Positions 1 through 61,632 of a DNA stretch of 64,000 bases are shown piece by piece. Each line of letters opens with the position of its first letter. The stretch's first letter is position 1. The translations under genes were made by a program, and so were the position numbers. The notes under the pieces were generated by a model, which saw only the letters and a program-made list of their open reading frames with translations, did not search any database and was not told where the DNA came from. The stretch is from positions 155,240 to 219,239 of the forward strand of contig CAVPUQ010000002.1 in NCBI GenBank assembly GCA_963708985.1, given 5' to 3'. The DNA is from an uncultured Actinomycetes bacterium. GTDB lineage: Bacteria > Actinomycetota > UBA4738 > HRBIN12.

Positions 1-340
1 CGCCGTCGTAGGGGCGCCCGACGACCTGAGCGATGTCGGCCGCCATGGCCTCGTCGCTGACCTCGTGGTTGGCGCTCTGGAAGCGGTTGTAGCAGGCGGC
101 GCAAGGCACCGCGACCGCGTCGAGCTTCATGTCGTCCTTGACCTTGACGAGCTCGTTGGCCGGCAGGGCAGCCGCCAGCAGACGGTTGGCGGAGTGGCCG
201 GCGGTGTTGCCGCAGCACTGCCAGCCGGGGATCTCGGCGAGGTCGACGTCGAGCTTGGCCATCGTGCCATCGAACGAGCTGTCGAGCTCCTTGGCGGTGC
301 TGTGGAGCGAGCAACCGGGGTAGTAGGCGAGCTTGGTCAT
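1..340 (-). CDS. hdrB: Heterodisulfide reductase subunit B (HdrB), N-terminal part; gene runs off the window edge
   Basis: Minus-strand translation from ATG at 340..338: MTKLAYYPGCSLHST...WQCCGNTAGH...PCAACYNRFQ. This is the CCG (cysteine-rich) domain signature of HdrB/GlcF. Its ATG overlaps the hdrC stop (ATGA). Confidence 0.8.
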   Translation of the reverse strand, partial: MTKLAYYPGCSLHSTAKELDSSFDGTMAKLDVDLAEIPGWQCCGNTAGHSANRLLAAALPANELVKVKDDMKLDAVAVPCAACYNRFQSANHEVSDEAMAADIAQVVGRPYDG

Positions 341-981
341 GACGTTCCGCCCACCTTCGGGGTTCCACCGGCAGCCGAGGCGCCGCTGGCGCCCGGCGCC
401 TTCCCGGCCGCCGCGATCTTGGCCTCGACGCGCCGCCGGGCCTCGACGCGCTCGGCCGCCCGGGACATGCGCTTCATCTGCCTGCGATCGCCGATCGCCG
501 GTAGCAGGCCGACCTTCCCCTTGGACAGCATCTTGATGCCGAGACCGGTGTAGCCGAGCGCGGCCTTGGGTCGCCTGAGCAGGTCGAGCACGACGAGCTC
601 GAGCTCATACAGGCGGCCCCAGCGCCTGAACGACCTGTAGTTGATGTCGAGGCTGCGCGCGAACGGCATGTCCCTACGTACCCGACCATCGTGGCGGGCG
701 ATGATCCGCAGCTCGTCCATGATCGAGGCGACGTCGATGCCCTGGGGGCAACGCGTGGTGCACGTCTCGCAGCCGGTGCACAGCCAGATGAACCTGCTGC
801 CGACCGACATGGCCTCGTCGCCGAGCTGCACGGCACGCATGACCTGAGCCGGATGGACGTCGGCGAACGGGGCCACCGGGCAGCCGGTGGAGCACTCCTT
901 GCACTGGTAGCACAGGTAGGGGTTCTCGCCCGATCCGGAGCGGATCCGTGCAGCGAGGGCGCCCGACAGGGTCTGGGTCAC
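337..981 (-). CDS. hdrC: Heterodisulfide reductase subunit C (HdrC), 2x[4Fe-4S] ferredoxin domain
   Basis: The ORF 337..1083 contains CYQCKECSTGCP and CTGCETCTTRCP. The likely start is GTG at about 981, preceded by GGAGGAGG. The longer ORF start would overlap the metF stop at 1017. Confidence 0.75.
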   Translation of the reverse strand: MTQTLSGALAARIRSGSGENPYLCYQCKECSTGCPVAPFADVHPAQVMRAVQLGDEAMSVGSRFIWLCTGCETCTTRCPQGIDVASIMDELRIIARHDGRVRRDMPFARSLDINYRSFRRWGRLYELELVVLDLLRRPKAALGYTGLGIKMLSKGKVGLLPAIGDRRQMKRMSRAAERVEARRRVEAKIAAAGKAPGASGASAAGGTPKVGGTS

Positions 982-1016
982 GTCCTCCTCCACTCGGTCA
1001 CGTTTCTCACTCCTTC

Positions 1017-1967
1017 TCAAGCGACCGCAGGGCGCGGCGTCAGTCCGGCGGCCTCGACGATCTCGGGAACGGCAGACTCCCACTCGATAGCCATGATGTG
1101 CACCCCTGCAACGCCCTCGACCTCGGCCAGCTCCTCGATCATCTCGACGGCGAGCTTCTTGCCTTCGGTCTGCTGCGCCTCACCCTTGTCCCTGCCGGCG
1201 ATGCGGTCGATGATCTCCTGCGGCACGTCCATGCCGGGCACCGACTTCTTCATGTAGTTGGCCATGCCGGCGCTCTTGATGGGCGTGATGCCGGCGAGGA
1301 TCTTGACCTCCTGGTGGAGTCCCAAGGCCCGCACCTCCTCCATCCACTGCTTGAACCTGGAGACGTTGAAGATGCACTGGGTCTGCACGAAGTCGGCGCC
1401 GGCTTCGACCTTCTTCTTGAGACGAAGGGCGCGGAACTCGAGCGGATCGCCGAAGGGGTTCTCTGCGCAGCCGATGAAGAGGGGAGGGGCAACGTCCATC
1501 TCCTCTCCGCACTGGAACCTCTTCTCATCGCGCATGTCCTTGTACATGCGGATCAGGCCGATCGAGTCAAGGTCGTGGACCCCCCGGGCCTTGGGGTGGT
1601 TCCCGAAGCTGATGTGGTCGCCCGTCAGGCAGAGGATGTTCTTCACGCCGAGCGTGGCGGCGCCGAGGATGTCGGCCTGCATGGCGAGCCGGTTGCGGTC
1701 GCGGCAGGTCATCTGCATGACCGCTTCGACGCCGCTCAGCTGCACCGTGTGAGCGGCGGCGAGCGAGCAGACGCGTACCACGGCCGTCTGGTTGTCCGTG
1801 ACGTTGGCGGCATCGACGTAGCCCCGGAGGAGCTCGGCCTTCTCTTCTATGACGCGGCCGTCTGCGCTCTTCGGCGGGCCGCACTCGCCGGTGACGGCGA
1901 ACGTGCCCGCCGAGAGGACCTTCTCGAGGTTGCTGCCCGCCTTCAGTGTCAGGAGATCGTCGCTCAT
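1017..1967 (-). CDS. metF: Methylenetetrahydrofolate reductase, MetF of the MetFV type
   Basis: 316 aa, MSDDLLTLKAGSNLEKVLSAG... with MTHFR TIM-barrel motifs (QTQCIFN, ILAGITPI). Same arrangement as the Moorella MetF that sits with MetV/HdrABC/MvhD. Its ATG overlaps the metV stop (ATGA). Confidence 0.85.
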   Translation of the reverse strand: MSDDLLTLKAGSNLEKVLSAGTFAVTGECGPPKSADGRVIEEKAELLRGYVDAANVTDNQTAVVRVCSLAAAHTVQLSGVEAVMQMTCRDRNRLAMQADILGAATLGVKNILCLTGDHISFGNHPKARGVHDLDSIGLIRMYKDMRDEKRFQCGEEMDVAPPLFIGCAENPFGDPLEFRALRLKKKVEAGADFVQTQCIFNVSRFKQWMEEVRALGLHQEVKILAGITPIKSAGMANYMKKSVPGMDVPQEIIDRIAGRDKGEAQQTEGKKLAVEMIEELAEVEGVAGVHIMAIEWESAVPEIVEAAGLTPRPAVA

Positions 1968-2647
1968 ACCGGCTTCGCTTCTTCGCGCACCATCTTCCGA
2001 GGACCACCGGAGCTGCTCTTGCTCCAGTCCTTGGGCGGACGGTACTGGAACATCAGCTCTTCACGGCCCTGCGCCTTCAGGCGCTCCCAGATCAGTGCCC
2101 AGGCGCACTCGATCTCCTCCCCGTCGGGGCCGACGACCTCGCAGAGTCCGGCGTGTGAGCCACCGCAGGGGCCGTTCATGAGGCTCTTGGAGCAGCGCAC
2201 CACCGGGCAGATGCCGGCGGTGAGTCCGATCACACAGTCGCCGCACGCAACGCAGCGCTCGAGCCACACCGCATGCTCCTGGGGCATGCCGAGCATGTTG
2301 GTGTTGACGGCCGGCATGACCAGCTTGGGGGCGAACTTCTCGGCCAGGGCCTGGATGCCGATACCGCACGCCATGCTGAGCACGAGCGGGAACTCGCCGA
2401 CCTTGTCGGCGATCGTGTCGAGGTACTCCCACTCGCACTGGCGGATGGCGGCCGTGTGCTCGACGGTGACCTCACGGCCTTCTTCCTTCGCCCTGATGCT
2501 GATCTCGGAGGCGAGGATCTCCGCCTCCTTCTCGCCCCCGGACATACAGATCGCGACACACGTGTCGCAGCCGGCGACCAGCACCCTGTCGTGCCCTTCG
2601 GTCATGGCGTAGATCTCGGCGAAGGGTTTGCGTTCCGCTGTGATCAT
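1964..2647 (-). CDS. metV: MetV, the zinc-ribbon small subunit of MetF-type MTHFR. In frame with the upstream mvhD, with no stop between them
   Basis: 227-aa segment MITAERKPFAEIYAMTEGHDRVLVAGCDTCVAICMSGGEKE...RCVACGDCV...CSKSLMNGPCGG. There is an internal ATG at 2647..2645 with an AGGAAGGA RBS. It is the C-terminal part of the continuous 1964..3262 reading frame. Confidence 0.75.
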   Translation of the reverse strand: MITAERKPFAEIYAMTEGHDRVLVAGCDTCVAICMSGGEKEAEILASEISIRAKEEGREVTVEHTAAIRQCEWEYLDTIADKVGEFPLVLSMACGIGIQALAEKFAPKLVMPAVNTNMLGMPQEHAVWLERCVACGDCVIGLTAGICPVVRCSKSLMNGPCGGSHAGLCEVVGPDGEEIECAWALIWERLKAQGREELMFQYRPPKDWSKSSSGGPRKMVREEAKPV

Positions 2648-3262
2648 CTCTTCGGTCCTTCCTGCACGGTGACCCCTGCGACGGACCCGCTGGGGGGTGT
2701 CGTCGGCACCCGCCGGGACGCCATCGGGCAGAGCGGCGTCACCCAGCCGGGCGCGCACGACCTCGGCCGGCTCGAAACCGTCCCGGGGCCGCACGGGGTT
2801 CGGCCCGAGGCGGCGGATGCGCTCGGTGAACTCGCGTGCCGTCCTGGCGAACTCCGGCCCCATGGCCGACGACATGTTGAACATCTCGACGCGCTGGGGA
2901 TCCATGCCCACTTCCTCGAGCAGCCTCTGCACGTGCCCCATCCGCTTGCGCGCCCAGAGGTTGCCCTCGAGGTAGTGGCACTGGCCTTCGAGGCATCCGG
3001 CGGCGTAGACGCCGTCGGCGCCGGCCTCGAGCGCCTTGAGCACGTGGATGACCTCGAGCTTGCCGGTGCAGGGCAGCTTGATCATGCGGATGTTGGTCGG
3101 GTACTGCAGGCGCATGCTTCCGGCGAGGTCGGCGGCCGCGTAGGCGCAGTAGTGACAGGCGAAGACGATGATCTCGGGTTCGAAGCCCTCGTTCGCCGGC
3201 AGCGCCGATCCGGTCGCCGGGTCGGCGAGGGTCGTCGTCGCCTGCCGTGCGTCGTCGGTCAT
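2648..3262 (-). CDS. mvhD: MvhD/FlxD-like [2Fe-2S] electron-transfer subunit. No stop codon before metV, so apparently translationally fused
   Basis: MTDDARQ...IIVFACHYCAYAAADLAGSMRLQYPTNIRMIKLPCTGKLEV...AAGCLEGQCHYLEGN...EFARTA is the canonical MvhD fold. The ATG at 3262..3260 overlaps the hdrA-like TGA. A Pro/Arg-rich 45-aa linker then runs straight into the MetV methionine. Confidence 0.75.
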
Positions 3263-6200
3263 CACACGTGAGCTCCCATGGTCAGCGCCTCTTCCTTCGC
3301 GAAGATCTGCACGTCCGTGTAGTGGTGCAGCTCGATCGCCTTGGCAGGGCATTCGCTGGCGCAGATGCCGCAACCCTGACAGGCCGCCGCCTCGATCGTG
3401 GCCTTCTTGGTGTCGGGCTCGATGATCGGCACGCCGTAGGGGCAGATCCGCACGCAGGTGAGGCAGGCGGCGCACTTGTCCTGGTCGACCTCCGCGACGA
3501 CGCCGCCGGCCGCGAGCGCCGGCTTGGCGAGGATCGCCGCGGCGCGACCGGCGGCGGCGTAGGCCTGCGAGATCGACTCCTCGATGCCCTTGGGATAGTG
3601 GGCCGAGCCGCACAGGAAGATGCCCTCGCTGGCGAAGTCGACCGGGCGCAGCTTGACGTGCGCCTCGAGGTAGAAGCCGTCGGCGGTGAGCGGCACCTTG
3701 AGCATCTTCGAGAGCTCCTCGTTCCCGTCGTTCGGGACCGTCGGGGTGGCCAGCACGAGCAGGTCGAGCGGCAGCCCGATGCGCTTGTTCAGGTACGGGT
3801 CTTTGAAGTCGACCTGGACGGAGCCGTTGGCGGTGACCAGCGGCCGGTCGCCGTTGTCGTAGCGCGTGAAGATGACGCCCAGCTCGCGGGCGCGGGTGTA
3901 GTACTCCTCGGTCAGGCCGGAGGTGCGGATCTCCTTGAACCACACGTAGACCGGTCGGTCGGGGTCCTGCTCCTTCAGGCGGATCGCGTTCTTGATGCTC
4001 TGCGCGCAGCAGGTCCGCGAGCAGTACGGCTTGTTCTCGTCGAGCGAGCCGGTGCACAGGATGAAGCCGACCGAGCCGGCCTGCTCGACCGCCGGGTCGT
4101 GGTCGGCGAGCAGCTTCTCGAGGTCCATGCCGGTGACGACCTTCTGGTTCGAGCCGAGACCGAAGAGCTCGGGGCGTTGCTCCTTCGCGCCGGTGGCGAC
4201 GATCACGACGCCGTGCTCGACGAGCATCCGCCTGCCGTCGTCGTCTTCGATCACGCTGGAGAAGTTGCCGATGAAGCCGTGGAAGTCGGTCAACAAGGCG
4301 CGGAGGTGCACCGTGACGTTGGGGTTGTCGACGACGCGCTTCACGAGCGCGGCGACGAACCCGGCGGGATCGCTGCCCCGGATGGTCCGGTCGAGCTCGA
4401 GCGCCCGTCCACCCAGCGTGTCGGTGCACTCCACGAGGTGCACCTCGTAGCCCATCTCTCCGAGCGCGGCAGCGGCCGTCATGCCCGAGATGCCGCCGCC
4501 CACGACGACGGCGGAGTGGGTGAGCGGCACATCGGTCTTGTAGAGGGGCTCGAGCTCGCGCGCCCGCGCCACGCTCATGCGGATCAGGTCCTTGGCCTTC
4601 TCGGTTGCCTTCTCGGGCTCGTCGCGGTGCACCCACGACGCCTGGTCGCGGATGTTGGCCATCTCGAACAGGAACGGGTTGAGGCCGGCCTCGCGCAGGG
4701 TGTCCTGGAAGATCGGCTCGTGCGTGCGCGGCGTGCAGCTCGCGACCACGACCCGGTTCAGGTCGTGCTCTTCGATCTTCTCCTTGATCAGCTTGAGCGA
4801 GTCGGAGGAACACGTGTACATCGTGTCGTCGGCGCAGACGACGCCGGGGAGCCCCATCGCGTAGTCGGCGGCGCCCTCGACGTCGATCACGCTCGCGATG
4901 TTGGAGCCGCAGTGGCACACGAAGACACCGACGCGCGGCTCTGCTCCGACGACCTGCTTCTCTGCCGGGTAGCGCTTGTCGACCGTCAGCGTGCCGCGCG
5001 CGTCGGCGAGGCCGGTCATCACCCGCGCCGCGGCGGCCGAGGCCTGGGCGACGGAGTCGGGGATGTCCTTGGGCTCGCTGAAGGGGCCGGCCACGAAGAC
5101 GCCGGGGCGTGAGGTGTCGAGCGGCTCGTACTCCTCGAGCTTGCAGAAGCCGTGGCGATTGAGCGCGATGCCCAGGGCGCCGGCGGCCTCCTGCGCCTTG
5201 CGCGAAGGCTCGAGGCCGACCGAGAGGACGACCATGTCGTATCGGTCGGTGTGCAGGGCGCCACCCGCGTCTTCCCAGGTGATCAGCGCATCGCCGGTCC
5301 CCGGGTCCTCCTTGATGGAGGAGGGCCGTGAACGCACGAACCTGACGCCCATGTCGAGGGCCCGCTGATAGAAGTCGTCGAACCCCTTGCCCATGGCACG
5401 CATGTCCATGAGGAAGACGGTCGGTTCGCAGTCGGGCTCGTGGTCGATGGTCAACATCGCCTGCTTGTTCGCGAACATGCAGCAGACGCTGGAGCAGTAC
5501 TCGTGCTCTTGATCGCGCGAGCCGACGCACTGGATGAAGGCGATGCTCTTGGGATGGCGGCCGTCGGATGGCCGCTTGACCTCGCCCTGGTTGGGACCGG
5601 ACGCCGAGAGCATCCTCTCGTACTCCAACGCCGAGAGGATGTTCGGGTACCGGCCGTAGCCGTACTCGCCCTGCCGGCTCGGGTCGTACGGGTCGAAGCC
5701 GGGGGCCAGCACGACGGCGCCCACATCGATCGTGATCTCTTCCTCTCGCTGGTCGAAAGCGATGGCATCGGCTTCGCAGACCACCTCGCAGACGCCGCAC
5801 ACGTCATGACTGAGACGTACGCAGGCGGCCGGGTCGATGACCGCAGTGTTGGGCACAGCCTGCGGGTAGGGGATGTAGACGGCCGGGCGGTCGTCGAGAC
5901 CCAGGTTGTACTCGTTCGCAAGCGGGATCCGCTCGTTCGGCGAGCTGAGCGGCGACACCTTCTTGCCGACGGGGCACACCTGGTCGCAGGCGCCGCAGGT
6001 CCAGCAGGCCTCGTTGTGCCGGCCGAACGGCGGCTCGAGCTTCTTGTTGGAGCCCCTGCCAGAGAAGCCGATCGCCGATCTGCCCATGCGTTCCTCGCAG
6101 ATGCGCACGCACAGACCGCAGTAGATGCAGTCATCGTTCTTCTTCGAGAAGCGCGGCTCCGTCACGCCGTATCCGGCCGCGATCCGCTGGATGACCTCCG

Positions 6201-6498
6201 AGTCGGGGCAGCGGGCCAGGAGGAGCTCGGATGTCACGCGCCGCGCTCGCATCACGCGGTCGCTGTCGGTGACCACGGTCATGCCGTCGAGCACCGGCAC
6301 GGAACACGAGGCCAGGAGACCGGGTGCACGGCCGGCCGTGCTGACCTCGACGACGCACAGCCGGCACGCGCCATATGGCGTCAGGGCCTTGTGGTCGCAG
6401 AGGGTCGGGATCCGGATGCCTTGCTGCTGGAGGGCGCGCAGCAGGTGGATGCCCCCCTCGACCTCGACCGGAGCACCGTTGATCGTCAGGCTCACCAT
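3262..6498 (-). CDS. hdrA: Large HdrA-like flavoprotein (1078 aa) with an N-terminal NuoG-like [2Fe-2S] domain and extra [4Fe-4S] domains. Appears to be a tandem or split HdrA architecture
   Basis: The start MVSLTINGAPVEV...CDHKALTPYGACRLC is a [2Fe-2S] domain, followed by CIYCGLCVRICE / CWTCGACDQVCP. Two HdrA CxGSRD...CSxxCC motifs are present (FIQCVGSRDQEHEYCSSVCC and ILCTGSLDENKPYCSRTCC). It also carries GVFVCHCGSNIASVIDVEG, an FAD Rossmann motif VVVGGGISGMTAAAALGEMGYEVHLVE, and a C-terminal 2x[4Fe-4S] domain. The ATG at 6498 overlaps the stop of the upstream gene. Confidence 0.8.
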   Translation of the reverse strand: MVSLTINGAPVEVEGGIHLLRALQQQGIRIPTLCDHKALTPYGACRLCVVEVSTAGRAPGLLASCSVPVLDGMTVVTDSDRVMRARRVTSELLLARCPDSEVIQRIAAGYGVTEPRFSKKNDDCIYCGLCVRICEERMGRSAIGFSGRGSNKKLEPPFGRHNEACWTCGACDQVCPVGKKVSPLSSPNERIPLANEYNLGLDDRPAVYIPYPQAVPNTAVIDPAACVRLSHDVCGVCEVVCEADAIAFDQREEEITIDVGAVVLAPGFDPYDPSRQGEYGYGRYPNILSALEYERMLSASGPNQGEVKRPSDGRHPKSIAFIQCVGSRDQEHEYCSSVCCMFANKQAMLTIDHEPDCEPTVFLMDMRAMGKGFDDFYQRALDMGVRFVRSRPSSIKEDPGTGDALITWEDAGGALHTDRYDMVVLSVGLEPSRKAQEAAGALGIALNRHGFCKLEEYEPLDTSRPGVFVAGPFSEPKDIPDSVAQASAAAARVMTGLADARGTLTVDKRYPAEKQVVGAEPRVGVFVCHCGSNIASVIDVEGAADYAMGLPGVVCADDTMYTCSSDSLKLIKEKIEEHDLNRVVVASCTPRTHEPIFQDTLREAGLNPFLFEMANIRDQASWVHRDEPEKATEKAKDLIRMSVARARELEPLYKTDVPLTHSAVVVGGGISGMTAAAALGEMGYEVHLVECTDTLGGRALELDRTIRGSDPAGFVAALVKRVVDNPNVTVHLRALLTDFHGFIGNFSSVIEDDDGRRMLVEHGVVIVATGAKEQRPELFGLGSNQKVVTGMDLEKLLADHDPAVEQAGSVGFILCTGSLDENKPYCSRTCCAQSIKNAIRLKEQDPDRPVYVWFKEIRTSGLTEEYYTRARELGVIFTRYDNGDRPLVTANGSVQVDFKDPYLNKRIGLPLDLLVLATPTVPNDGNEELSKMLKVPLTADGFYLEAHVKLRPVDFASEGIFLCGSAHYPKGIEESISQAYAAAGRAAAILAKPALAAGGVVAEVDQDKCAACLTCVRICPYGVPIIEPDTKKATIEAAACQGCGICASECPAKAIELHHYTDVQIFAKEEALTMGAHV

Positions 6499-8531
6499 CA
6501 GCGGTCCTCGCCCTTCTCGGTCCGTCCTGCTCCCGCCGCGCCTCGGTCCTGTCTCCACTCAGCCGCCGGGATCGGGACGGGCAGGGATTCCCACTCCTCG
6601 GCCTCTCTGCCCGTCAGCTTCAGCACGGCATCCAGCCTTGGAGGGCACACCTCGAAGCACTCGCCGCACTTGGTGCACAGATCAGCGTCGATCACGTGGA
6701 TCGACTTCCGTTCACCCCTGATGGCGCCGGCGGGGCACGCCTTGAGACAGAGACCGCAGCCCGGGCACCTGTCGGGGTCGATCGCGAACGTGAGGAGCGC
6801 CTTGCATGCCCTCGCAGGGCAGGCACCGTCGTTGATGTGGGCCTCATACTCATCGCGGAAGAAGCGGAGCGTTGAGAGCACGGGGTTGGGCAGCGTGGTG
6901 CCGAGTCCGCACATCGACGCGTCCTTGATCACCTCGCCGAGGTCCTCGAGCAGCTCGAGGTCGCCCGGTCGCCCCTCGCCTGCGGTGATCCGCGTGAGGA
7001 CCTCGAGGAGGGCGTCGCTGCCGTCCCGACAGGTGGTGCACTTGCCGCAGGACTCGTCGTTGGTGAACTGGACGAAGTACTTGGAGACGTCGACCATGCA
7101 CGTGTCTTCGTCCATGACGATCATGCCGCCTGAACCCATGATCGAGCCGGCTTCCCGGAGGCTCTCGTAGTCGACGGGCGAGTCGAAGTAGCTTGCCGGG
7201 ATGCAGCCGCCGGACGGACCCCCGGTCTGGACGGCCTTGAACTCCTTGCCGTCCGGGATCCCGCCGCCGACGTCCTCGACGATCTCGCGAAGGGTCATGC
7301 CCATGGGGACCTCGATCAGCCCGGAGTTCTGGATCTTGCCCACGAGCGAGAAGATCTTGGTGCCCTTGCTGGTCTCAGTGCCCGTTTCCGCGAACCGGCC
7401 GGCGCCGCCCGTGATGATCACTGGGACGTTGGCGAGCGTCTCGACGTTGTTGATGACCGTCGGCTTCCCCCATAGGCCGGACTGCACCGGGTAGGGTGGT
7501 CTTTGCCGCGGCTCCGGCGACCTGCCTTCGATCGAGCGGATCAGAGAGGTCTCCTCACCGCAGACGAACGCGCCCGAACCCTCACGGATCTCGACGTCGA
7601 GGCAGAAGCCCGAGCCGAGGATGTCCTCGCCGAGCAGCCCGTGCTCGCGGGCCTGCTCGATCGCCTTCTGTAGACGGACGATAGCGAGCGGATACTCGGT
7701 CCTCACGTAGGCGTAGCCCCGCGAGGCTCCGATGGCGTATGCCGCGATGGCCATGCCCTCGAGGACCGCATGCGGGTCGGACTCGAGGAGGCTGCGGTCC
7801 ATGTACGCGCCGGGGTCGCCCTCATCGCAGTTGGCGATGATGTACCTCGGCGTCGCCTCTTCGGCGCGGCACAGCTCCCACTTGATGGCCGTGGGGAACC
7901 CGGCGCCCCCACGTCCACGCAGACCCGCGCGGCGCACCTCGTCGATGACCTGTTCGGGCGTCATCGAGGTGACCGCCTTCGCGAGGCCTGCGTAGGCGTC
8001 ACGGGCGAGCGCGTGCTCGAAGACCTCCGGGTCGATGAGGCCCTTGTTGCGGAGCACGACCAGTCGCTGCTTGCTGAAGAACGGCAGGTCGGCGACGAGT
8101 GGCATGGTCGTGGCAACCACTTCCTTCTTCTTCGCCGACGCGTCCGCAGTTGCGCCGGCGACGTCGCCGATGCCGAGGGCGAGATCTTCGACCGCTCGTC
8201 CGCCAACGACGTGGTCGGCCACGATCTTCCGGGCGTCGTCGGCCGCAAGACCACCGTAGAGCGTCGGTGCCTCGCCCGGGACCACGACCGTGACCATCGG
8301 TTCACGCGAGCACAGCCCGGCGCACCCGGTCGTGATGATCTCGACGCCGCCTACCCCCGTCTCAGAGAGCTCGTCGGTGATCGCTGCGAGAACCTCGTTG
8401 GCTCCGGCTGCGCTGCCGCACGTGCCCATGTGGACGATGACCCTGGCGCGTAGGTCTCGTCCTTCGAGGGCAACCTGCCGCACCGCCTCCTCGCGTCGCC
8501 GATAGAGCTCCCGCACGGTGAGGGCGGCCAT
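6498..8531 (-). CDS. NADH-binding flavoprotein of the NuoF/HydB/HoxF/FlxA type (FMN, [2Fe-2S] thioredoxin-like N-domain, 2x[4Fe-4S] C-domain)
   Basis: 677 aa with HMGTCGSAAGANEV...TGCAGLCSREP (thioredoxin-like 2Fe-2S), GRGGAGFPT (NADH/FMN), ESCGKCTTCRDG (N3 cluster), and C-terminal CPGCGLCLKACP / CTKCGECFEVCP. Confidence 0.85.
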   Translation of the reverse strand: MAALTVRELYRRREEAVRQVALEGRDLRARVIVHMGTCGSAAGANEVLAAITDELSETGVGGVEIITTGCAGLCSREPMVTVVVPGEAPTLYGGLAADDARKIVADHVVGGRAVEDLALGIGDVAGATADASAKKKEVVATTMPLVADLPFFSKQRLVVLRNKGLIDPEVFEHALARDAYAGLAKAVTSMTPEQVIDEVRRAGLRGRGGAGFPTAIKWELCRAEEATPRYIIANCDEGDPGAYMDRSLLESDPHAVLEGMAIAAYAIGASRGYAYVRTEYPLAIVRLQKAIEQAREHGLLGEDILGSGFCLDVEIREGSGAFVCGEETSLIRSIEGRSPEPRQRPPYPVQSGLWGKPTVINNVETLANVPVIITGGAGRFAETGTETSKGTKIFSLVGKIQNSGLIEVPMGMTLREIVEDVGGGIPDGKEFKAVQTGGPSGGCIPASYFDSPVDYESLREAGSIMGSGGMIVMDEDTCMVDVSKYFVQFTNDESCGKCTTCRDGSDALLEVLTRITAGEGRPGDLELLEDLGEVIKDASMCGLGTTLPNPVLSTLRFFRDEYEAHINDGACPARACKALLTFAIDPDRCPGCGLCLKACPAGAIRGERKSIHVIDADLCTKCGECFEVCPPRLDAVLKLTGREAEEWESLPVPIPAAEWRQDRGAAGAGRTEKGEDR

Positions 8532-8532
8532 C

Positions 8533-9441
8533 TCAATCGCTCCCCCTGCAGGTCGCGACGATCCCTGGGATGTCCCTGGCTGTCGCCTTCCCGCAGACCT
8601 TGCCGTCCACCATGATGGCCGGGGCCAGGCCGCAGCACCCGATGCAGCGCACGGGCTTCAGCGTGAACAGCCGGTCGTCGGTAGTCTCGTCGGGGTTCAC
8701 CTCAAGGACATCGCTCAGCTTGTCCATCAGCCGCTGGCTCCCGCGCACGTAGCACGTGGTCCCCATGCAAACGCTGATCGTGTGCTTGCCACGCGGGGTG
8801 ATGCTGAACGAGGTGTAGAAGGTGGCGATGCGGTACAGATCGGTGAGCGGCTGGCCCGTGCGCAGCGCTACGTAGACGAGGACGTTCTCTGGGAAGTAGT
8901 TGTACTCGCGGTTGATCTCCTGAAGGATCGGCATCAGCGAGCCGGTCTGGTTGCGGTGGCTCGCCAGGATCTCGTCGACCCTATCTCGAACGGCTGGGTC
9001 GAGCTCCGGCTCTGTCACGGGGTTGAGCTGCACCCTGTTGTGGGTTGGGCAGGAAGTGGTGCACACGCCGCAGCCGGTGCACCTGTCCTCGTCGACATAG
9101 CGCGGTCGCTTCCGAAGGGTGACCTTGAAGTTGCCGACCCCCCCTTCGATGCGCGTCACTTCGGCGCCTGTGATGACGTCGACGTCCTTGTGTCGGCCGA
9201 CCTCGACCAGTTTGGGAGAGATCGTGCACATCGCGCAGTCGTTGGTGGGGAAGGTCTTGTCGAGTTGCGCCATATGGCCACCGAGGGCAGGCTGCTTCTC
9301 GACGAGGTAGACCTTGTACCCGCCCTCGGCGAGATCGAGTGCGCACTGGATACCCGCGACGCCGCCGCCGAGGACGAGCGCGGCCCCGGAGGGCTTGGCA
9401 GCGCCTTGCCGCCGTCCGGCCGGCGTCGGGGTCGGCATCAT
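8533..9441 (-). CDS. Fusion of the HdrA N-terminal FAD half-domain with a NuoE/HoxE-like [2Fe-2S] thioredoxin-like ferredoxin
   Basis: From ATGATG at 9441: ...[52 protein letters not shown]...[19 protein letters not shown] matches the HdrA N-terminus. It is followed by a NuoE-like segment [18 protein letters not shown]...[12 protein letters not shown]...CIGCCGLAP. The 446-aa ORF start is an upstream GC-rich extension. The real start overlaps the acsE stop (ATGA). Confidence 0.7.
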
Positions 9442-10388
9442 GCAGGTCCTTCCTGCCCGCCCGAGTGGAGGTACCCCTCGGCATAGATGACCTTGTTCAG
9501 CAGGATCTGCACGGTCTTCCACACCTCGAGCTGCTCGGCGTCGTCGAGGTCTACGTCGTCGATGGACGGCTCTTCCATGGCAGCGATGCGATCTGCGATC
9601 GCCACGTATAGCCTGCCGAGCGGCGTGGAGGCGTCGCGTGCCTCGACGACGCGGATCACCTCCATCAGCTCCTCCTCGAGGGGGTTGGCGATCATCATCT
9701 GCAGGCCCGCCCCCATGAGCATGGCGCAGTACACACGATTGATGAGCGGTCGGTCCGCGGAGGGAACCGCGTTCGAGACGTTGGACAGCCCCACCGAGAT
9801 CGCCGGTGGCGGATCCCAGGCCACCGGGACCGTTCGCACGGCTTCGATCGCCTCGGGGCAGTACTCCTGGCATCCCGAGACCGTGAGGACGAGGGGGTCG
9901 ATGATGAGATCCGACACCGGGAAGTCGATCTCGAGCATCCGGGGGATGAGCTTCTCGATGACGATGTTCACTCGCTCGTCGGCGGATACGGGGATCCCGC
10001 TCTTGCCCATCGTGAGGGCCACCAACCTGGCGTCGTAGCGCTTGGCGAGGAGGGGAACCTCCTCCAGGCGCTCCTCTTCGGCCGAGGTGGAGTTGATGAT
10101 CGGCTGTGCCTTGGTGATCGCCCGCAGCCCGGCCTCGATGCCGCGGATGTTGGTGCTGTCCAGGCTCAAGGGGACATCGACGGCCGCCTCGACGGTCCGC
10201 ACGATCCAGGGGAAGACCTCCTCCCAGTCCTTCTTGCGCGGTCCGAGGTTCAGGTCCAGCGCCTGGGCGCCCGCCTCGACCTGGGCGGCCGCGAGGTTCT
10301 GGAAGAAGGAAGCGTCGCGTTCCGCCAGTGCGGCCTTCACCTTCTCCGAAACGATGTGGATGTTCTCGCCGATCAGGTACATGGTCAT
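9438..10388 (-). CDS. acsE: Methyltetrahydrofolate:corrinoid/iron-sulfur protein methyltransferase (AcsE/MeTr)
   Basis: 316 aa, [11 protein letters not shown]...ALDLNLGP...LSLDSTN...LTMGKSGIP...GLSNVS. This is the pterin-binding TIM barrel of AcsE. Confidence 0.85.
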
Positions 10389-10394
10389 GTCCTC

Positions 10395-12302
10395 CTAGGT
10401 GATCGACGCCTCCACGGAAGGGAACCGCGAGAGATCCGTGTGCGGCAGGAACAGTGCCGAGGTGAAGGCCTCGTAGAACGAGTTGTCGGCTGACAGCTCG
10501 ATGTACGTCATCGCCGAGGCGATCCCGGCGACCGCGGCTCGCATCTCACGATCCAGCAGGGCGAGATACGCGCCCTTGACCGAGGTGTTCCCCAGGAACT
10601 CGAAACGCTCCCAGGGAAGATCGGGAAGCAGGCCGATGTCCACGGCCTTCTCGACGTTGATGTACTTGCCGAACGCCCCGCCGATCAGCACCCTTTCGAC
10701 GGAGCCGAGCTCGACGCCCACTCGGTCGGCAAGGACGTTGAAGCCCGCGTAGACCGCGGCCTTGGCCCTCAGCAGGTTGTCGATGTCCACCGCCGTGATG
10801 GTGATGTCATCGCCGTCCGCCGTGTCCTTCCCCCAGGCCACGACGTACTCGGCCCCGTGCTCGCCGCGCCGGACCCGTGGCGTTGGCAGGGTCTGATCGA
10901 TGTGCCCACCCTTGTCGACGATGCCGGTGAGGAACATCTCGGCGACGAGCGAGATCAACCCGCTCCCACAGATCCCGCGAGGCCGACCCTTCCCGATCAC
11001 CCGACAGGTCGGCTCGTAGGTCCGACCGTCGATCCACACCTCCTCGACGGCTCCGCGGGCCGCCCGCATGCCGTGCACCACGCCCGAGCCCTCGAAAGCG
11101 GGCCCCGCCGAGCAGGCGCACGACACGAGCCAGCTCGAGGACCCCAGGACCATCTCCCCGTTGGTGCCGATGTCGATGAACAGCGTGGTCTCGTCGGAGG
11201 ACCGCAGGCCTGAGGAGAGCACGCCGGCGCTGATATCCGCCCCTAGGTAGCTGGCGACCCCCGGCAGCAGGTCGACGGTTCCCTCCGGGCACATGCTGAT
11301 GCCCACGTCCCGGGCGGACAGGCAGGGCGGGTGGTTGATGGACGTGATGAACGGCTCGAGACGGATGCTCTCCGGAGGGATGCCGAGCAACAGGTGCATC
11401 ATCGTGCTGTTGCCGGCGACGACGGCCTTCACGATGGCGGTCGGCTCGACGTTCGCGCGGCGACACACCGCCTCGATCCGCTCGTTGATCGTCGCGAGGA
11501 CGAGCTCCCTCAGCTCCTCGCCGCCGTCTCCCTTGGTGGCGTAGATGATGCGGGAGATGATGTCCTCGCCCCGGGCGATCTGCTGGTTGTACTCGGACGA
11601 CTGGGCCATCACCTCCCCGGTGAGGAGATCCACCAGGCACACCGTGACCGTGGTCGTGCCGATGTCGATCGCGAGCCCACACAGCGGCTCCGAGGCTGCC
11701 GCCGCCGGGCCGATCGCGACGAGGCGAGCGGTGCCCGGCGGCTCGTCCGCGGTGTCGTAGGTGACAGCCACCTGCCAGTCGGAGGATCGGAGCATCCCGC
11801 CGAGCTCGCGGACCTGCGACAGCGACGCTCGGAGCCGGTCGGTGCCGGTCTCGCGGCGAAGCGCGGTGCACAGTCGCGCCCAGTCGTCGGTCTGGTCGTC
11901 CATCGACGGCCGGGGGAGGAGGAGAACGACCCTGCCGATCGTCTGCGCCTTGGCGGCGTCGTACCCGTCGGGCGCGACGATCTCCGGCGCGACGTGATCG
12001 GTCGTGAGCCGGCGCTCGATCTGCTCGACGGGCGGCACGACGACCGACACGTCACCCTCGACCACCGTCTGGCAGGCGAGGGCGTACCCGGCTTCCACGT
12101 CGGCCGCGGAGAGGCGGAGCACGCTCCGGCGCCGCACCCGACCCGATTCCACCCGCACGGCGCAACGCCCGCACCGTCCCTGCCCGCCGCAGGGTTGCTG
12201 GATGTCGAGCCCGAGCCGGCGAGCAGCTTCGACCAGCAGGGTCCCCGCCCGTACGGTGATGGGCTCGGCACGGTCGGCGAATCGGACGATGTGCTCGGCC
12301 AC
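10395..12302 (-). CDS. Corrinoid iron-sulfur protein reductive activase (RACo): [2Fe-2S] ferredoxin plus ASKHA ATPase
   Basis: 635 aa. The N-terminal plant-type ferredoxin reads [12 protein letters not shown]...ALACQT. The ASKHA domain shows [11 protein letters not shown] and FIDIGTNGE. Confidence 0.8.
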
Positions 12303-12316
12303 GGGGGCTCCTCAGA

Positions 12317-13678
12317 TCACGGTCGATCCTCCACCAGCACGGTCTTCATGTAGGCAGGCAGATCCACCGCTTCGCGGGGACCGACCATCACGTGCCAATC
12401 GGGCAGCTCTTCTTCGAGCTCGCCAGACAGGACGGCGACGTGCCCGGGAAGCACGATCTGTCGTCGATCGACCTTGTCAGCCACCCCGAACTCCTTGACG
12501 GCCTTGGCTATCGACTCCGCATCGAACTTGCCGGCTGCCCACGCCGTCAGCACGCTCATCCCCTCGGCATCGGTGACGAGCAGCCATGCGGGAAGGCCGG
12601 AACCCTCCACCTCGTTGGCGACGCTGAAGTACGTGATGCTGAAGTTCGTCGTGACCAGGAGTGGATCGCTCGGCTTCGGACCGTTGATCTCGTAGAGGGC
12701 GGGTTGCACCTGGATCGGTTGCTGCGGATCCGTGTAGAGGTTCTCGCGCAGGACCAGGAGCGGATACACGAGTTCGGGCGCGAAGACATCCAGCACCACG
12801 AATCCCGCGTACTTCGCGATCGCTTGCGTGGCGACGACGGAGACCATGGCCCGATCGATGGACCCGTCGACGAACCCGATCGTCGGATAGCCGAGCGGCC
12901 GGAAGTTCTTCAAGGCCAGGCGCCGGATCTGTGTCTGCAGCGCCAACGAAGCACCCATCCCCGTCGCCATCGGGCGGAGGACGATGTCCTCCACGCCCTT
13001 GCCCTTCAGCTGCTCGCTGAGGTCGGCGAGCTCGTCCAGGGTGCTGCCTGCGACGCTCAGGGCAGCGCCATGCTCGAGCGCCAGATCGGCCATCCGCTCC
13101 CAGTTCTGCTGGTCCGCACCGACGAGGAGCGGCTTCTCCCCATCGAGGATCGCCAGGCCGGCTCGAGGACATCCGGGTCCTCACCCACCAGCACCATCGG
13201 GAGATCGCTGACCCGCCGCACCGTACCCACCGCTCCAGCGAACCTCGCGGGATCACCGGAAGTGGATCCCACGGCGAACCCGTCGATCCCGAGCTCGACG
13301 CCGACGTAGTCGACGGTGTAGGCGTCCGCCCGCTTGACCTGCTCCTCGATCGCCGCCTCCTCGAGCGTGTCGGCGACGTCGATGAGGACACCCGGGCGGT
13401 TGACGAACGTCTTCTCGTGTCGGAAGAGCACCGTTTCGTTGCCGGCCTTGACCTGACGGCCCCTCCCCACCAGCTCGATCAGCCGGATCGGCGGAGCGGC
13501 CGATGCGGCGAGCTCCGTCTTGGACTCGTCCGTCACGTAGGGGCAGTCGCCCAGGTCGACCTGTTTGGCCGCCAGCTTCATGGCGAACGCGAGGCAGGTG
13601 GGGAATCCGCATTCCTTGCAGTTGGTCTGCGGGAGGAGCTTGTAGATCTGGATCCCTGAGAGTGCCGTTGGCCGTCAC
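12317..13678 (-). pseudogene. acsC: CoFeSP large subunit AcsC, broken by at least two frameshifts
   Basis: C-terminal ORF 12317..13093: GYPTIGFVDG..., LYTDPQQPIQV and a B12-binding-like tail. N-terminal ORF 13057..13581: CKECGFPTCLAFAMKLAAKQVDLGDCPYV, the [4Fe-4S] site. The N-terminus ...LSGIQIYKLLPQTNCKEC is out of frame with the only nearby start (GTG about 13678). A second shift sits at about 13155-13160, where a CCC/CC run splits ...DPDVLEPA from LAILDGEKPLLVGADQQNWERMADLA... Confidence 0.7.
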
Positions 13679-14646
13679 CTACCCCACTGTCATCAACTGG
13701 TCGAGGGCGGCCCGCACGCGGGTGAGGCTCTCCGGGTGGCGGAGCACGACGACATCCGCGCCCGCTTCGATCAGCGCCACGGCGGTAACGGTCTCCCAGT
13801 TCACCGCCCGCTCTCCCCAGTCACCCCACGCGTCCGGCACGCCCTGACCGACCTTCGCCTCTTTGGTCTTCCAGGCCTCGTAGCCGGGGTTCACCACCAT
13901 CGGGAGTTGGGTCATGGCATCCCCCTGGAGCGCGGCGAGCCGCAGTCGCTCCATGACCGAGTACCCGTACTCGATGCCGTAGCCGAGTGCGCCGGTGGTC
14001 GGATCCATCAGGATCCGCTCGCGCGGCAGGCCCATGTCGGTGATCAGGATGATGAGCTGCTTGGCCAGGTTGACGTCCATCGGGGTGCGGCCCATCACCA
14101 GGTGATCGTTGGCCATGGCGGCCGCGACGATGGTCCGGTAGTTGGTGTCTTCGCAGAGGCCCAGCACCAGCCGCTCACCCTTGGTGGCGTCGGCGACCGG
14201 GACGAGGAGCTCGTTGTCGACCTCCGCCTGCCCCGGTCCCACCACGATCAACGGGCAGCCCGGTGCTCTCGAGGACCTTCGTGACCGAGCGCACGGCGAG
14301 ATCGGGGCTGACGGGATCGCCGCCGGCGTCCTCGAGACCCAGCACGAGGACGATGAGGTCGGCCCCGGCCATCCGGCGGCCGCCGCCCAGCTGCCGGGGT
14401 CCTCGGCGCACCTCACCCCAGGCCTCCAGCAGCACCGCCGACCAGTCGTTCGGTCGGAGGGAAGCGATCTCCAGCGCGATGACGGGACGGTGTGGAGGCG
14501 TCTCCTCGAAGTGCAGGAAGGGAAGGGTGCGTCTCGCCCCCGATCGTGACGGTCGAGGTTCGCGTCCCACCATCCTGCGCCGTCGCTCCCAGCGTGACGA
14601 CCTTGACCGCACCCGGCCAGTCGTCCTTGGGGATCTCAATCGGCAC
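13679..14646 (-). pseudogene. acsD: CoFeSP small subunit AcsD, broken by about two frameshifts
   Basis: Start GTG at about 14646 after AGGAGG: (M)PIEIPKDDWPGAVKVVTLGATAQDGGTRTSTVTIGGETH... Shift at about 14523-14526 (G run), then ...LPFLHFEETPPHRPVIALEI...ADLIVLVLGLEDAGGDPVSPDLAVRSVTKVLESTGLPV. Shift at about 14235 (GTTG), then IVVGPGQAEVDNELL...GYGIEYGYSVMERLRLAALQGD...VVLRHPESLTRVRAALDQLMTVG. Confidence 0.7.
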
Positions 14647-14692
14647 GAAGGCCTCCTGCTGGTGCGGTCGCGCTCCGGTCCGGTCCGGCCGA

Positions 14693-20857: not shown

Positions 20858-20951
20858 CGCGGAGGCGGACGGGAATCGAACCCGCCTGCGAGCTCTCGCC
20901 CGCACACCGGTGTTGAAGACCGGGGGGCCCACCAGGCGCCCGGACGCCTCC
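20858..20951 (-). tRNA. selC: tRNA-Sec (selC), anticodon UCA
   Basis: Reverse complement: GGAGGCGT..CCGGT-CTTCAAC-ACCGG (anticodon stem-loop, anticodon TCA), a long variable arm TGTGCGGGCGAGAGCTCGCAGGC, T-arm GCGGGTTCGATTCCCGT, and a 3' acceptor CCGCCTCC pairing with 5' GGAGGCG (8/5-type). Confidence 0.75.
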
Positions 20952-49805: not shown

Positions 49806-50362
49806 GCCTCCCCGGTGCATCCGGACACGCGGACGGCGTCCTCGACGACCATGTCGTAGCCCTCCGGCCCCGAGTACTCGGTCGAGCGGATCGAGTACGT
49901 GCCGTTCTCGCCGAACTCCCACAGAAGGTCGTTCCGGTGGCCTGGGATGACCTGCATCTGGAAGAGCATCGAATCGTTCTGGCGGAACAGACCGAACCCG
50001 TAGGTCAGGTCCGCGGACGAAACGTCGAACAGCACCTTGTCGTTGCAGTCGATCAGAAGCTGCTCCGTCGGCAGCCGGAACTCGTGGTCCGCGACGCCGA
50101 TCTCGAAGACCTTGTCGGCCTGGGTGTCGGCGCGATGCAGGTCGAGCGGCGACCACGGGATCGTGTTGTAGGTGATGATGTGGAGCGATACCCCCGTGAT
50201 CGCGAGGAAGCCTACGAACGCGTAGAAGACCCCCGGGCGCACGCGGGCCGGTCCCTCCTGCGTCACTCGATATGCGAACCAGGCGACGACGAGGATGATC
50301 ACGAGCGCGTACAGGGTGTAGACGATCGTCTGTCCCCACAGGACGGTGTTGGAGTCGACCAT
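49802..50362 (-). CDS. Heme-copper oxidase subunit II-like protein (2 TM helices plus cupredoxin-like domain) lacking the CuA Cys/His motif
   Basis: MVDSNTVLWGQTIVYTLYALVIILVVAWFAYRV...VFYAFVGFLAITGV...HEFRLP...MQVIPGHRND... There is no CxExCGxxH. Confidence 0.6.
   Translation of the reverse strand: MVDSNTVLWGQTIVYTLYALVIILVVAWFAYRVTQEGPARVRPGVFYAFVGFLAITGVSLHIITYNTIPWSPLDLHRADTQADKVFEIGVADHEFRLPTEQLLIDCNDKVLFDVSSADLTYGFGLFRQNDSMLFQMQVIPGHRNDLLWEFGENGTYSIRSTEYSGPEGYDMVVEDAVRVSGCTGEA

Positions 50363-59775: not shown

Positions 59776-61631
<1,856 letters not shown>

Positions 61632-61632
<1 letters not shown>

Follow-up and report, generated by a model that had tools for sequence, protein, structure and literature searches.

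The 64,000-nucleotide stretch of DNA analysed here (in the following 'the window'; contig CAVPUQ010000002.1 of an uncultured Actinomycetes bacterium) carries, directly downstream of acsE in a Wood-Ljungdahl gene cluster, eight tightly packed genes (Table 1). In these, the six subunit families of the Moorella-type methylene-tetrahydrofolate (methylene-THF, CH2-THF) reductase (MTHFR), MetFV-HdrABC-MvhD, are encoded together, hdrB being partly visible, and are combined with a NAD(H)/flavin module. Behind acsE follow the genes for a fusion of an HdrA fragment with NuoE (below 'the fusion protein'), a NuoF-like protein, a large subunit joining a NuoG-like domain to HdrA, MvhD, MetV, MetF, HdrC and HdrB. 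All junctions are overlaps of 1–4 nt or gaps of at most 35 nt: the fusion gene, which starts with ATG, has 4 nt in common with the end of acsE, overlaps of the same length join the metF start to the metV stop and the hdrB start to the hdrC stop, and GTG at 981 or at 993 is the candidate start of hdrC. Frame analysis by GC content at third codon positions (GC3) and by codon position places every real gene within 1..~19000 on the minus strand, and a plus-strand gene reading was rejected on the GC3 phase. A promoter/terminator scan, otherwise uninformative, found no minus-strand terminator-like site inside the gene cluster, and an Rfam scan of the operon returned no RNA element.

Domains were assigned to the open reading frames (ORFs) of the window by Pfam and NCBIfam profile searches, and these bear out an earlier, sequence-only reading of this DNA which had placed NuoE/NuoF-like proteins, a split HdrA, MvhD, MetV, MetF, HdrC and HdrB in one operon. 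Its further claims that the operon lies on the same strand as acsE, directly downstream of it, and ends at 9441 are exact according to the frame analysis and the 4-nt overlap, and the actinobacterial look of the organism agrees with the name Thermoleophilia of co-members in a 90% sequence cluster. Its gene list had the components right, but missed the NuoG-like domain on HdrA, the presence of two HdrA units and an apparent MvhD-MetV fusion.

HdrA is distributed as two units over two polypeptides. In the fusion protein, residues 20–135 match positions 141–257 of the HdrA2 profile and residues 155–298 constitute a NuoE/HoxE-type 2Fe-2S_thioredx domain. The N-terminal 135 residues represent the start of the thioredoxin-reductase-like domain of HdrA that binds flavin adenine dinucleotide (FAD), with its GxGxxG motif (GGGVAG), a redox pair C69xxC72, which is invariant in the family (25-sequence alignment), and the first cysteine motif (C121–C131) of the inserted ferredoxin domain; among solved structures they match HdrA 141–258 at 1e-41 to 1e-46. 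The large subunit (i) opens with a [2Fe-2S] plus 2x[4Fe-4S] domain similar to NuoG/HoxU and the N-terminus of BfuA (residues 1–180; best solved match 9mqx_A, a NuoG-like chain of 247 residues, 2e-39), (ii) continues with the rest of HdrA unit 1 (residues ~185–505), which holds the second motif of the inserted ferredoxin domain (C226–C241), the cluster motif C324/335/339/340 and Lys345, and (iii) ends with HdrA unit 2 (residues 520–1078), made up of an N-terminal cluster domain, an FAD domain (GGGISG) and a C-terminal 2x[4Fe-4S] domain. Both units retain the motif C-x10-C-x3-CC-x4-K, which in unit 1, with K345, is HMMER-aligned to 5odc_A and in unit 2 (C815/826/830/831 and Lys836) is recognised by motif only, in a stretch left unaligned by HMMER. 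A lysine is found in the 5odc_A alignment at the position next to flavin N5, which we take to be K409 of HdrA from Methanothermococcus thermolithotrophicus.

Unit 1 is devoid of the N-terminal and C-terminal domains of HdrA, and unit 2 is devoid of both the CxxC pair (IRGSDPAG is found there instead) and the inserted ferredoxin domain. Neither protomer therefore has the full HdrA domain set: the pair has a single copy of each accessory domain, and the inserted domain is split. Judged by these domains, the HdrA pair is best described as an asymmetric fused dimer resembling BamE of class II benzoyl-CoA reductase (BCRII) and not as a canonical HdrA. Unit 1 is broken right behind the first of the two cysteine motifs of its inserted ferredoxin domain; as these motifs lie on different chains, the clusters of the domain would be shared by two polypeptides. 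In the order of the genes, this break is filled by NuoE, NuoF and the NuoG-like domain. As the HdrA fragment continues into NuoE, and the remainder of HdrA follows the NuoG-like domain on one chain, the module is predicted to be dedicated to HdrA and not to the catalytic subunit of a distant formate dehydrogenase (FDH) or hydrogenase; the gene fusions show the module and HdrA to be a single physical unit. The proposal that an Hdr-type MTHFR operon within a Wood-Ljungdahl cluster has incorporated a NAD(H)/flavin module is thus supported by fusions, a firmer tie than synteny.

In homologues from Desulfatiglandales and Desulfobacterales (Desulfobacterota; loci L016, at 10169, and L021, at 9877) the HdrA fragment of ~140 residues is a separate ORF, unfused to NuoE, and the codon for the second cysteine of its CxxC pair is TGA, a putative selenocysteine, which speaks for a functional CxxC pair. 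The operon genes of the window showed no in-frame TGA. A gene for tRNA-Sec (anticodon TCA) is located at window positions 20859–20951 (minus strand), just upstream of the Wood-Ljungdahl cluster.

The type of the NuoE/F/G module follows from its similarities and its cofactor sites. The nine best PDB relatives of the NuoF-like subunit all belong to the HydABC/Bfu family (612–734 bits; NfnABC, StnABC, NiFe-Bfu, three HydABC and WOR-Bfu), the best relative outside this family scores 399 bits, and non-bifurcating FDH and complex I homologues do not exceed 400 bits. The subunit has an N-terminal thioredoxin-like domain (residues 31–117, aligned with 9bov_B 3–87) and a C-terminal 2x[4Fe-4S] ferredoxin domain (Fer4 at 582–633, C589–C629), both of which are missing in non-bifurcating NuoF homologues; the C-terminal domain (clusters B3/B4) binds ferredoxin and is essential in HydABC of T. 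kivui (PMC11829005). In the alignment to 9bov_B all cysteines within 149–629 are conserved, including the [4Fe-4S] motif C495/498/501/541 and C571/C576. In Bfu enzymes the thioredoxin-like domain carries the B5 site, a [2Fe-2S] cluster or Zn; here it has three cysteines only (C38, C70 and C74) that are conserved across the cassette family, from which the metal cannot be read. For the NuoE half, the best PDB matches are the Bfu subunits 7t2r_C, 8a6t_C and 7q4v_C (HydC/BfuC), and its [2Fe-2S] ligands C225, C230, C266 and C270 are invariant in the alignment mentioned above. NuoE/F/G is consequently assigned as a HydABC/Bfu-type NAD(H)/ferredoxin core, of predicted activity, and not as a complex I or Flx-type module. 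A complex I reading was rejected in view of the far lower similarity and of the neighbours, which are acsE, hdrA/mvhD and metVF and not membrane or Q-module subunits (nuoA-D, H-N), and a Flx-type reading in view of the NADH subunit, which is of the Complex1_51K NuoF type; no FNR-like domain was detected in the operon genes with Pfam and NCBIfam. Where the module had been called much like Flx, similarity and domains point instead to the HydBC/Bfu type, for which BamDEFGHI is the better comparator.

Table 1. Features of the minus-strand Wood-Ljungdahl cluster in window coordinates, followed by the segments of the two HdrA-bearing proteins matched to HdrA of Methanothermococcus thermolithotrophicus (residue numbers).
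Feature	Position	Strand	Support
HdrB, first 113 aa (CCG domain), runs off window start	1..340	-	CCG 3.1e-09
HdrC, 2x[4Fe-4S] (C24-C34, C68-C78)	337..981	-	CoB_CoM_SS_C 4.5e-17; Fer4_17 8.4e-11
MetF, methylene-THF reductase catalytic flavoprotein, 316 aa	1017..1967	-	MTHFR 3.8e-45; PDB MTHFRs 1e-13 to 1e-16
MetV, small Cys-rich subunit of MetFV-type MTHFR	1964..2647	-	DUF5981 2.6e-31
MvhD-type [2Fe-2S] adaptor	2648..3262	-	FlpD 1.6e-50; VhuD 7.2e-44; PDB MvhD chains 1e-31 to 1e-36
NuoG-like domain + double HdrA (large subunit), 1078 aa	3262..6498	-	HdrA2 1.8e-251 in 3 stretches; Fer2_4 4.7e-18; Fer4; HoxU/NuoG matches
NuoF/HydB (BfuB)-type flavin mononucleotide (FMN)/NAD(H) subunit, 677 aa	6498..8531	-	Complex1_51K 1.5e-48; NADH_4Fe-4S 4.3e-32; nuoF_fam 1.3e-143
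HdrA N-terminal fragment-NuoE fusion, 302 aa	8533..9441	-	HdrA2 2.4e-49; 2Fe-2S_thioredx 3.3e-44
AcsE, methyl-THF:corrinoid/iron-sulfur (FeS)-protein methyltransferase	9438..10388	-	Pterin_bind 1.6e-17; NF005719 1.9e-65; 89% identical to L081 AcsE
RACo	10395-12302	-	tblastn with L081 proteins
AcsC	~12317-13680	-	tblastn with L081 proteins
AcsD	~13679-14646	-	tblastn with L081 proteins
AcsB	~14739-16992	-	tblastn with L081 proteins
CO dehydrogenase (CODH)	17010-19046	-	Prismane 4e-156
Fusion protein, HdrA segment	residues 20-133		HdrA (5odc_A) 145-258
Large subunit, HdrA unit 1 segment	residues ~185-505		HdrA 5odc_A ~259-570 (HMMER-aligned: 164-445 to 245-511)
Large subunit, HdrA unit 2, first segment	residues 520-748		HdrA 5odc_A 3-232
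Large subunit, HdrA unit 2, second segment	residues 921-1071		HdrA 5odc_A 496-648

Two relatives show how the operon is kept. On contig L081 (~89% identity to the window, 88.6%) the order is acsB-acsD-acsC-RACo-acsE-fusion-NuoF-HdrA-MvhD-MetV-MetF, and its Pfam-annotated gene calls back the assignments upstream in the Wood-Ljungdahl cluster of the window. On contig L083 (76% identity) the order fusion-NuoF-HdrA-MvhD-MetV-MetF-HdrC-HdrB is found away from acsE, with a full-length HdrB of 287 residues at the matching position. In the window metVF is likewise interleaved between hdrA-mvhD and hdrCB, an order shared with L083 throughout and with L081 as far as MetF. On L083 there are moreover, at 7038–8417 (minus strand), two Dimeth_Pyl ORFs in the same frame, split only by TAG, which have the signature of a putative pyrrolysine-type dimethylamine methyltransferase (mtbB-like); lying ~1.6 kb upstream of the MTHFR operon, this gene hints at a methylotrophic context there.

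In the present assembly MvhD and MetV share one ORF of 432 residues (1964–3262). An extra base in a C6 run at ~2697, within the poorly conserved MvhD tail, brings mvhD in frame with metV, which keeps its own ATG at 2647 with GGAAGGA ahead of it. L081 has separate genes for a 204-residue MvhD and a 227-residue MetV that overlap by 4 nt, the MetV proteins of window and L081 being 97% identical, and every other member listed of the 90% cluster (14 of 132) has an unfused MvhD- or MetV-sized protein. A genuine, conserved MvhD-MetV fusion was rejected on these grounds, and the apparent one is probably an artefact of a 1-nt indel.

Taken together, the eight genes may be read as encoding one soluble, multi-flavin and multi-FeS MTHFR of the Hdr type whose NAD(H) site is provided by a HydBC/Bfu module grafted into HdrA, a reading which, by analogy with characterised systems, we favour over its rivals, but consider about evenly poised between right and wrong. 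That MetFV and HdrCB join the Bfu-HdrA unit we infer from the interleaved and coupled gene order, from its conservation and from the Moorella precedent.

The wider distribution of the module bears directly on this reading. The fusion protein has 5563 matches at E ≤1e-10, of which the best 120 are nearly all ~290–310 residues long and 58–93% identical to the query across 92% or more of its length; the 25-sequence alignment has a mean column identity of 74%. The genes for the fusion protein, NuoF, NuoG-HdrA and MvhD form a four-gene cassette in at least 19 representative genomes carrying the full-length fusion gene, from Acidobacteriota, Ignavibacteriota, Desulfobacterota, Firmicutes, Spirochaetota, Planctomycetota, Latescibacterota, Fibrobacterota, Cloacimonadota and archaea. 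The cassette adjoins genes for an MvhAG-like [NiFe]-hydrogenase, often together with a QmoC-like membrane protein, in no fewer than 10 of the 19, and has [NiFe]-hydrogenase neighbours in the majority of phyla; among the matches listed (19 genomes), metV-metF lies directly behind it only in L006, a Desulfobacteraceae metagenome-assembled genome. The cassette is thus not specific to MTHFR, but is a widespread unit exchangeable among partners. Since the fusion protein of the window is closer to hydrogenase-linked versions (59–72% identity) than to other MetFV-linked ones (48–54%), MetFV has probably been recruited to the cassette more than once. The possibility raised by the sequence-only reading against itself, that the NuoE/NuoF-like proteins belong to a hydrogenase or FDH family with partner genes elsewhere, is partly borne out for the family as a whole, and not for this locus: a phmmer search against all window ORFs found no hydrogenase or FDH homologue in the 64 kb.

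The hydrogenase-adjacent loci (L001–L005, L007, L010, L018, L019 and L084–L086) are of interest in their own right. Their QmoC-like protein of ~390 residues combines an HdrC-type FeS domain with a NarI-like membrane domain, and small DRTGG, CBS, HATPase and PHP genes are often found there as well. What these loci encode looks like a putative hydrogenase-Hdr-Bfu complex which is widespread, notably in Acidobacteriota, and apparently uncharacterised. In L007, L008, L010 and L013 (e.g., L013 11314–14382) the NuoF-like protein is extended to ~1025 residues by a GltD/NfnB-like domain at its C-terminus (Fer4_20 + Pyr_redox_2), suggestive of an additional site for NAD(P)H.

The frequent occurrence of the cassette without metFV, beside an MvhAG-like hydrogenase and a QmoC-like protein, also suits a different explanation, namely that two enzymes are merely co-transcribed at the locus: a self-standing Bfu-HdrA-MvhD oxidoreductase linked to NAD(H) and ferredoxin, like the hydrogenase-associated versions, and a ferredoxin-dependent MetFV, with or without HdrCB, of the kind known from Clostridium ljungdahlii, whose MetFV alone is active with reduced ferredoxin (PMC8515935). 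Next to the cassette, L014 and L018 indeed have a Moorella-like Hdr-MvhD-MetVF-HdrC set that is distinct from it. The window, however, has a single HdrA and a single MvhD, between which and hdrCB metVF is sandwiched with overlapping codons; the arrangement is kept in L081 and L083 and is seen also in L006; and HdrCB would be orphaned, without an HdrA partner. We thus hold separate enzymes to be very unlikely.

For the single-enzyme reading, an electron path can be mapped by analogy onto the cryo-EM wiring of BCRII. There, electrons from NADH and reduced ferredoxin run from BamGH via BamI, the C-terminal clusters of BamE and BamF to the bifurcating FAD, whence the high-potential branch leads via BamD to electron-transferring flavoprotein (ETF) and the low-potential branch via the inserted ferredoxin domain to BamBC (bioRxiv 10.64898/2026.04.10.717634). 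In the window system, the FMN of the NuoF-like subunit would oxidise NADH, and electrons would pass to the NuoG-like FeS domain on HdrA, the ferredoxin domain at the C-terminus of HdrA unit 2, the [2Fe-2S] cluster of MvhD and then the FAD of HdrA unit 1, i.e., of the split unit with the CxxC pair and the flavin-adjacent lysine. This FAD would be the single coupling site, where electron pairs are bifurcated: the high-potential electron would travel via the adjacent [4Fe-4S] cluster and HdrC/HdrB to MetV and the MetF flavin, which would reduce CH2-THF (-200 mV), and the low-potential electron would exit via the inserted ferredoxin domain to ferredoxin (Fd). NADH alone might feed the chain, as 68% of the BamGHI clusters are reduced when NADH is the only donor (bioRxiv 10.64898/2026.04.10.717634). 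The net reaction would be 2 NADH + CH2-THF + Fd(ox) <-> 2 NAD+ + CH3-THF + Fd(red), CH3-THF denoting methyl-THF; a reaction of this form (reaction 21, 2 NADH + CH2-THF + Fd?) has been proposed for Moorella with a standard free energy near -5 kJ/mol (PMC5861303). Being near equilibrium, it would be reversible, and could also oxidise CH3-THF in a metabolism that uses methyl groups or runs the Wood-Ljungdahl pathway backwards. Directly visible in the sequences are the genes and their fusions, the cofactor motifs, the conserved synteny and the family assignment; as with the path itself, we infer the complex of all eight proteins, the bifurcating flavin, the stoichiometry and any additional input of reduced ferredoxin at the Bfu module.

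Several points weigh against this scheme. The cassette mostly occurs without MetFV and could be an independent enzyme; the bifurcating flavin is not assignable from sequence alone, the lysine and cluster motif being present in both HdrA units; HdrB is visible for 113 residues only and its role is unassigned; and frameshifts of acsB, acsC and acsD in this assembly leave the integrity of the pathway uncertain. To our knowledge, characterised Bfu cores all use ferredoxin together with NAD(P)(H), and if the Bfu core used ferredoxin and HdrA reduced the same ferredoxin pool, ferredoxin would cancel and no energy would be conserved. By the same stoichiometric calculation, double bifurcation with one ferredoxin pool was rejected as productive in either direction, the net reaction being that of NADH with CH2-THF. 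Of the earlier suggestion that NADH and reduced ferredoxin are co-substrates for CH2-THF reduction, or the reverse, the NAD(H)/ferredoxin-type module survives, but the co-substrate net reaction would be energetically wasteful. Moreover, the Moorella enzyme gave no ferredoxin reduction in vitro, and its second acceptor is unknown (PMC8515935, PMC5861303).

The ferredoxin balance leads to the question of whether two bifurcation modules could operate in series as in BCRII. The Bfu core would then confurcate NADH and reduced ferredoxin to ~-400 mV, and the HdrA FAD would re-bifurcate, with CH2-THF (-200 mV) as high-potential acceptor and an electron of ~-600 mV delivered to a non-bulk acceptor, e.g., a dedicated ferredoxin or the co-transcribed CODH/acetyl-CoA synthase (CODH/ACS; CO2 -> CO). 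Such a tandem is favoured by the ferredoxin-binding C-terminal 2x[4Fe-4S] domain kept in the NuoF-like subunit, which is essential for HydABC bifurcation, by the precedent of BCRII, where the modules are arranged in just such a series, and by the strand-continuous cluster with CODH/ACS. However, no candidate acceptor is at hand, the scheme is futile with a single ferredoxin pool on stoichiometric grounds, and the L083 operon is not adjacent to CODH/ACS; bulk ferredoxin is, furthermore, generally taken as enough for CO2 reduction at CODH. We hence regard the tandem as unlikely. It is a still less probable, if appealing, speculation that the window presents a second natural case, after BCRII, of two bifurcation modules in series, in which exergonic CH2-THF reduction lifts electrons from NADH and ferredoxin to ~-600 mV for a dedicated acceptor, most attractively CODH/ACS. 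If true, the Wood-Ljungdahl pathway would have its most exergonic step coupled directly to the most endergonic one.

Alternatively, the enzyme might not bifurcate at all, but act as an NADH:methylene-THF oxidoreductase in which the FMN of the NuoF-like subunit feeds MetFV along a wire of HdrA, MvhD and HdrCB. The net reaction would be exactly this if both modules used the same ferredoxin, and the NuoF-like protein has weak NCBIfam matches to rnfC models. The MTHFR of Acetobacterium woodii, which such an enzyme would resemble in function, has its NADH site on RnfC2 and is not bifurcating (PMC8515935, PMC5861303), and some HydABC and HdrABC homologues do not bifurcate either (PMC5861303). On the other hand, it would be hard to explain why ~3,000 residues of bifurcation-type machinery, comprising the CxxC pair or its selenocysteine variant, the lysine, the ferredoxin domains and the Bfu C-terminus, are kept for nothing in a cassette as highly conserved as indicated by the column identity of the fusion protein. 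A non-bifurcating wire thus appears distinctly unlikely to us.

Regarding the frameshifts upstream, acsB, acsD and acsC (window 12317–16992) differ from L081 by ~18 single-base indels and one 2-nt insertion; the indels are mostly insertions and mostly outside homopolymers, and the substitution level there is normal (85–90% identity). Positions 1–12,300 hold one frame-changing indel only relative to L081, namely that at ~2697. This pattern points to assembly or sequencing error more than to old pseudogenes, or else to very recent decay.

Further genes of the window may be mentioned. A homologue of heme-copper oxidase subunit I (COX1, 2e-55) is encoded at 48129–49820 (minus strand), in a genome which also has CODH/ACS genes. 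An HdrD-like protein of 588 residues (57832–59598, minus strand) combines 2x[4Fe-4S] and CCG domains with an N-terminus of ~270 residues without assignment; its gene lies divergent beside dnaK-grpE-dnaJ, where the GrpE gene (61629–62699, plus strand) is apparently fused to an N-terminal HSP20/alpha-crystallin domain (HSP20 50–131, GrpE 203–353).

Of the redox steps in the Wood-Ljungdahl pathway, that of methylene-THF reductase is the most exergonic. Whether Hdr-type enzymes conserve this energy, and how, has been a question since 2014, for want of a known second acceptor of the Moorella enzyme. A fused NAD(H)/ferredoxin-binding module now names likely redox partners of an Hdr-type MTHFR. Moreover, the Bfu + HdrA tandem, for which a 2026 report knew benzoyl-CoA reductase as the sole case, is widespread with [NiFe]-hydrogenases and MetFV, and its exchangeable cassette bears on the modular assembly of the energy-coupling machinery of anaerobes.

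Among known systems, the MTHFR of Moorella thermoacetica (Mock et al. 2014; '6S type' or type IV) shares six component families with the window operon. In both, mvhD, metV and metF are adjacent and the genes lie next to acsE in a Wood-Ljungdahl cluster. MetFV-HdrABC-MvhD was purified from Moorella as a six-subunit complex that oxidises NADH, reduces CH2-THF with viologen and holds 2 FAD in HdrA (PMC5861303), to which the two FAD-binding units of HdrA in the window correspond. For Moorella, however, the NADH site was assigned to HdrA itself (PMC8515935), whereas in the window NuoE- and NuoG-like parts accompany a separate FMN subunit of the HydB/NuoF type; and, compared by published description, HdrA unit 1 of the window is unlike its Moorella counterpart in being split, with its N-terminal 135 residues on NuoE. 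The RnfC2-MetFV enzyme of A. woodii (3S type) likewise combines MetFV with a separate subunit bearing the NADH site, but has no HdrA, MvhD or HdrBC, is not bifurcating, and its RnfC2 is a MetV-RnfC fusion.

FlxABCD-HdrABC of Desulfovibrio resembles the window system in combining a NADH-linked module with HdrABC and an MvhD-like subunit (FlxD). Ramos et al. in 2015 are said to have described FlxA as an FNR-like FAD/NAD(P) protein and not as a NuoF homologue. Nothing ties the Flx system to MetFV, unlike the window module, and FlxA has been referred to as 'the predicted NADH dehydrogenase' (PMC4759654). With the HydABC/Bfu family (bifurcating [FeFe]- and [NiFe]-hydrogenases, NfnABC, StnABC and WOR-Bfu), NuoF and NuoE of the window share the extra cofactor sites, whereas the catalytic BfuA domain is absent here and a short BfuA-like N-terminus is found on HdrA instead.

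The closest studied analogue, by published description, is BamDEFGHI of BCRII from Geobacter metallireducens, a chassis also named 'Bam-Bfu' (PMC9304861) and belonging to the sole enzyme so far described, besides the present one, in which both types of bifurcation module occur; Schut et al. 2022 list Bam-Bfu as an HdrA-containing Bfu enzyme and make no mention of methylene-THF. Counterparts in the window exist for BamGH (HydBC-type NADH/ferredoxin), BamI (NuoG-like FeS), BamE (fused HdrA dimer), BamF (MvhD-like) and BamD (HdrBC-like). In BamE, TrxR1 holds the bifurcating FAD with the pair Cys59-Cys62 and Lys280, and the second unit is structural (bioRxiv 10.64898/2026.04.10.717634); CxxC pair and lysine at the FAD are likewise found on the first HdrA unit of the window. 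The same April 2026 preprint states that two bifurcation modules in one complex were previously unreported. The systems differ in that HdrC and HdrB are separate in the window and fused in BamD, in that BamG, BamI and BamE are separate genes whereas the window joins NuoE with an HdrA fragment, and HdrA with the NuoG-like domain, in single proteins, and in that MvhD of the window is devoid of the selenocysteine found in BCRII. The output, too, is different: MetV and MetF fill the variable position taken by the tungsten enzyme BamBC in BCRII, no AOR-family (BamB-type) domain was found in the operon genes with Pfam and NCBIfam, and the acceptor would be CH2-THF (-200 mV) as compared with benzoyl-CoA (-622 mV) and ETF. 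By analogy, the window operon would thus work like the Bam chassis without being a member of the class II benzoyl-CoA reductases.

Finally, the association of a NADH module with metFV, proposed for this locus by the sequence-only reading, stands as an arrangement but has a precedent. In Dethiosulfatarculus sandiegensis, Desulfobacterales and Chloroflexi, Yi et al. 2021 found metFV to be preceded by NuoEFG homologues, named these unstudied clusters 'X type' and speculated on bifurcation (PMC8515935); the enzyme type is flagged in the literature, but uncharacterised. Merino et al. 2020 described hdrA-mvhD-metVF-hdrCB in Hakuba Actinobacteria, with NuoEF unmentioned (PMC7325909). The X type and the window operon are alike in having a NuoE/F/G-like module upstream of metV-metF, and L006 shows the X-type order built from the very same cassette; to the published description of the X type, which is without mention of HdrA, MvhD and HdrCB, the window adds hdrC-hdrB and an actinobacterial host.

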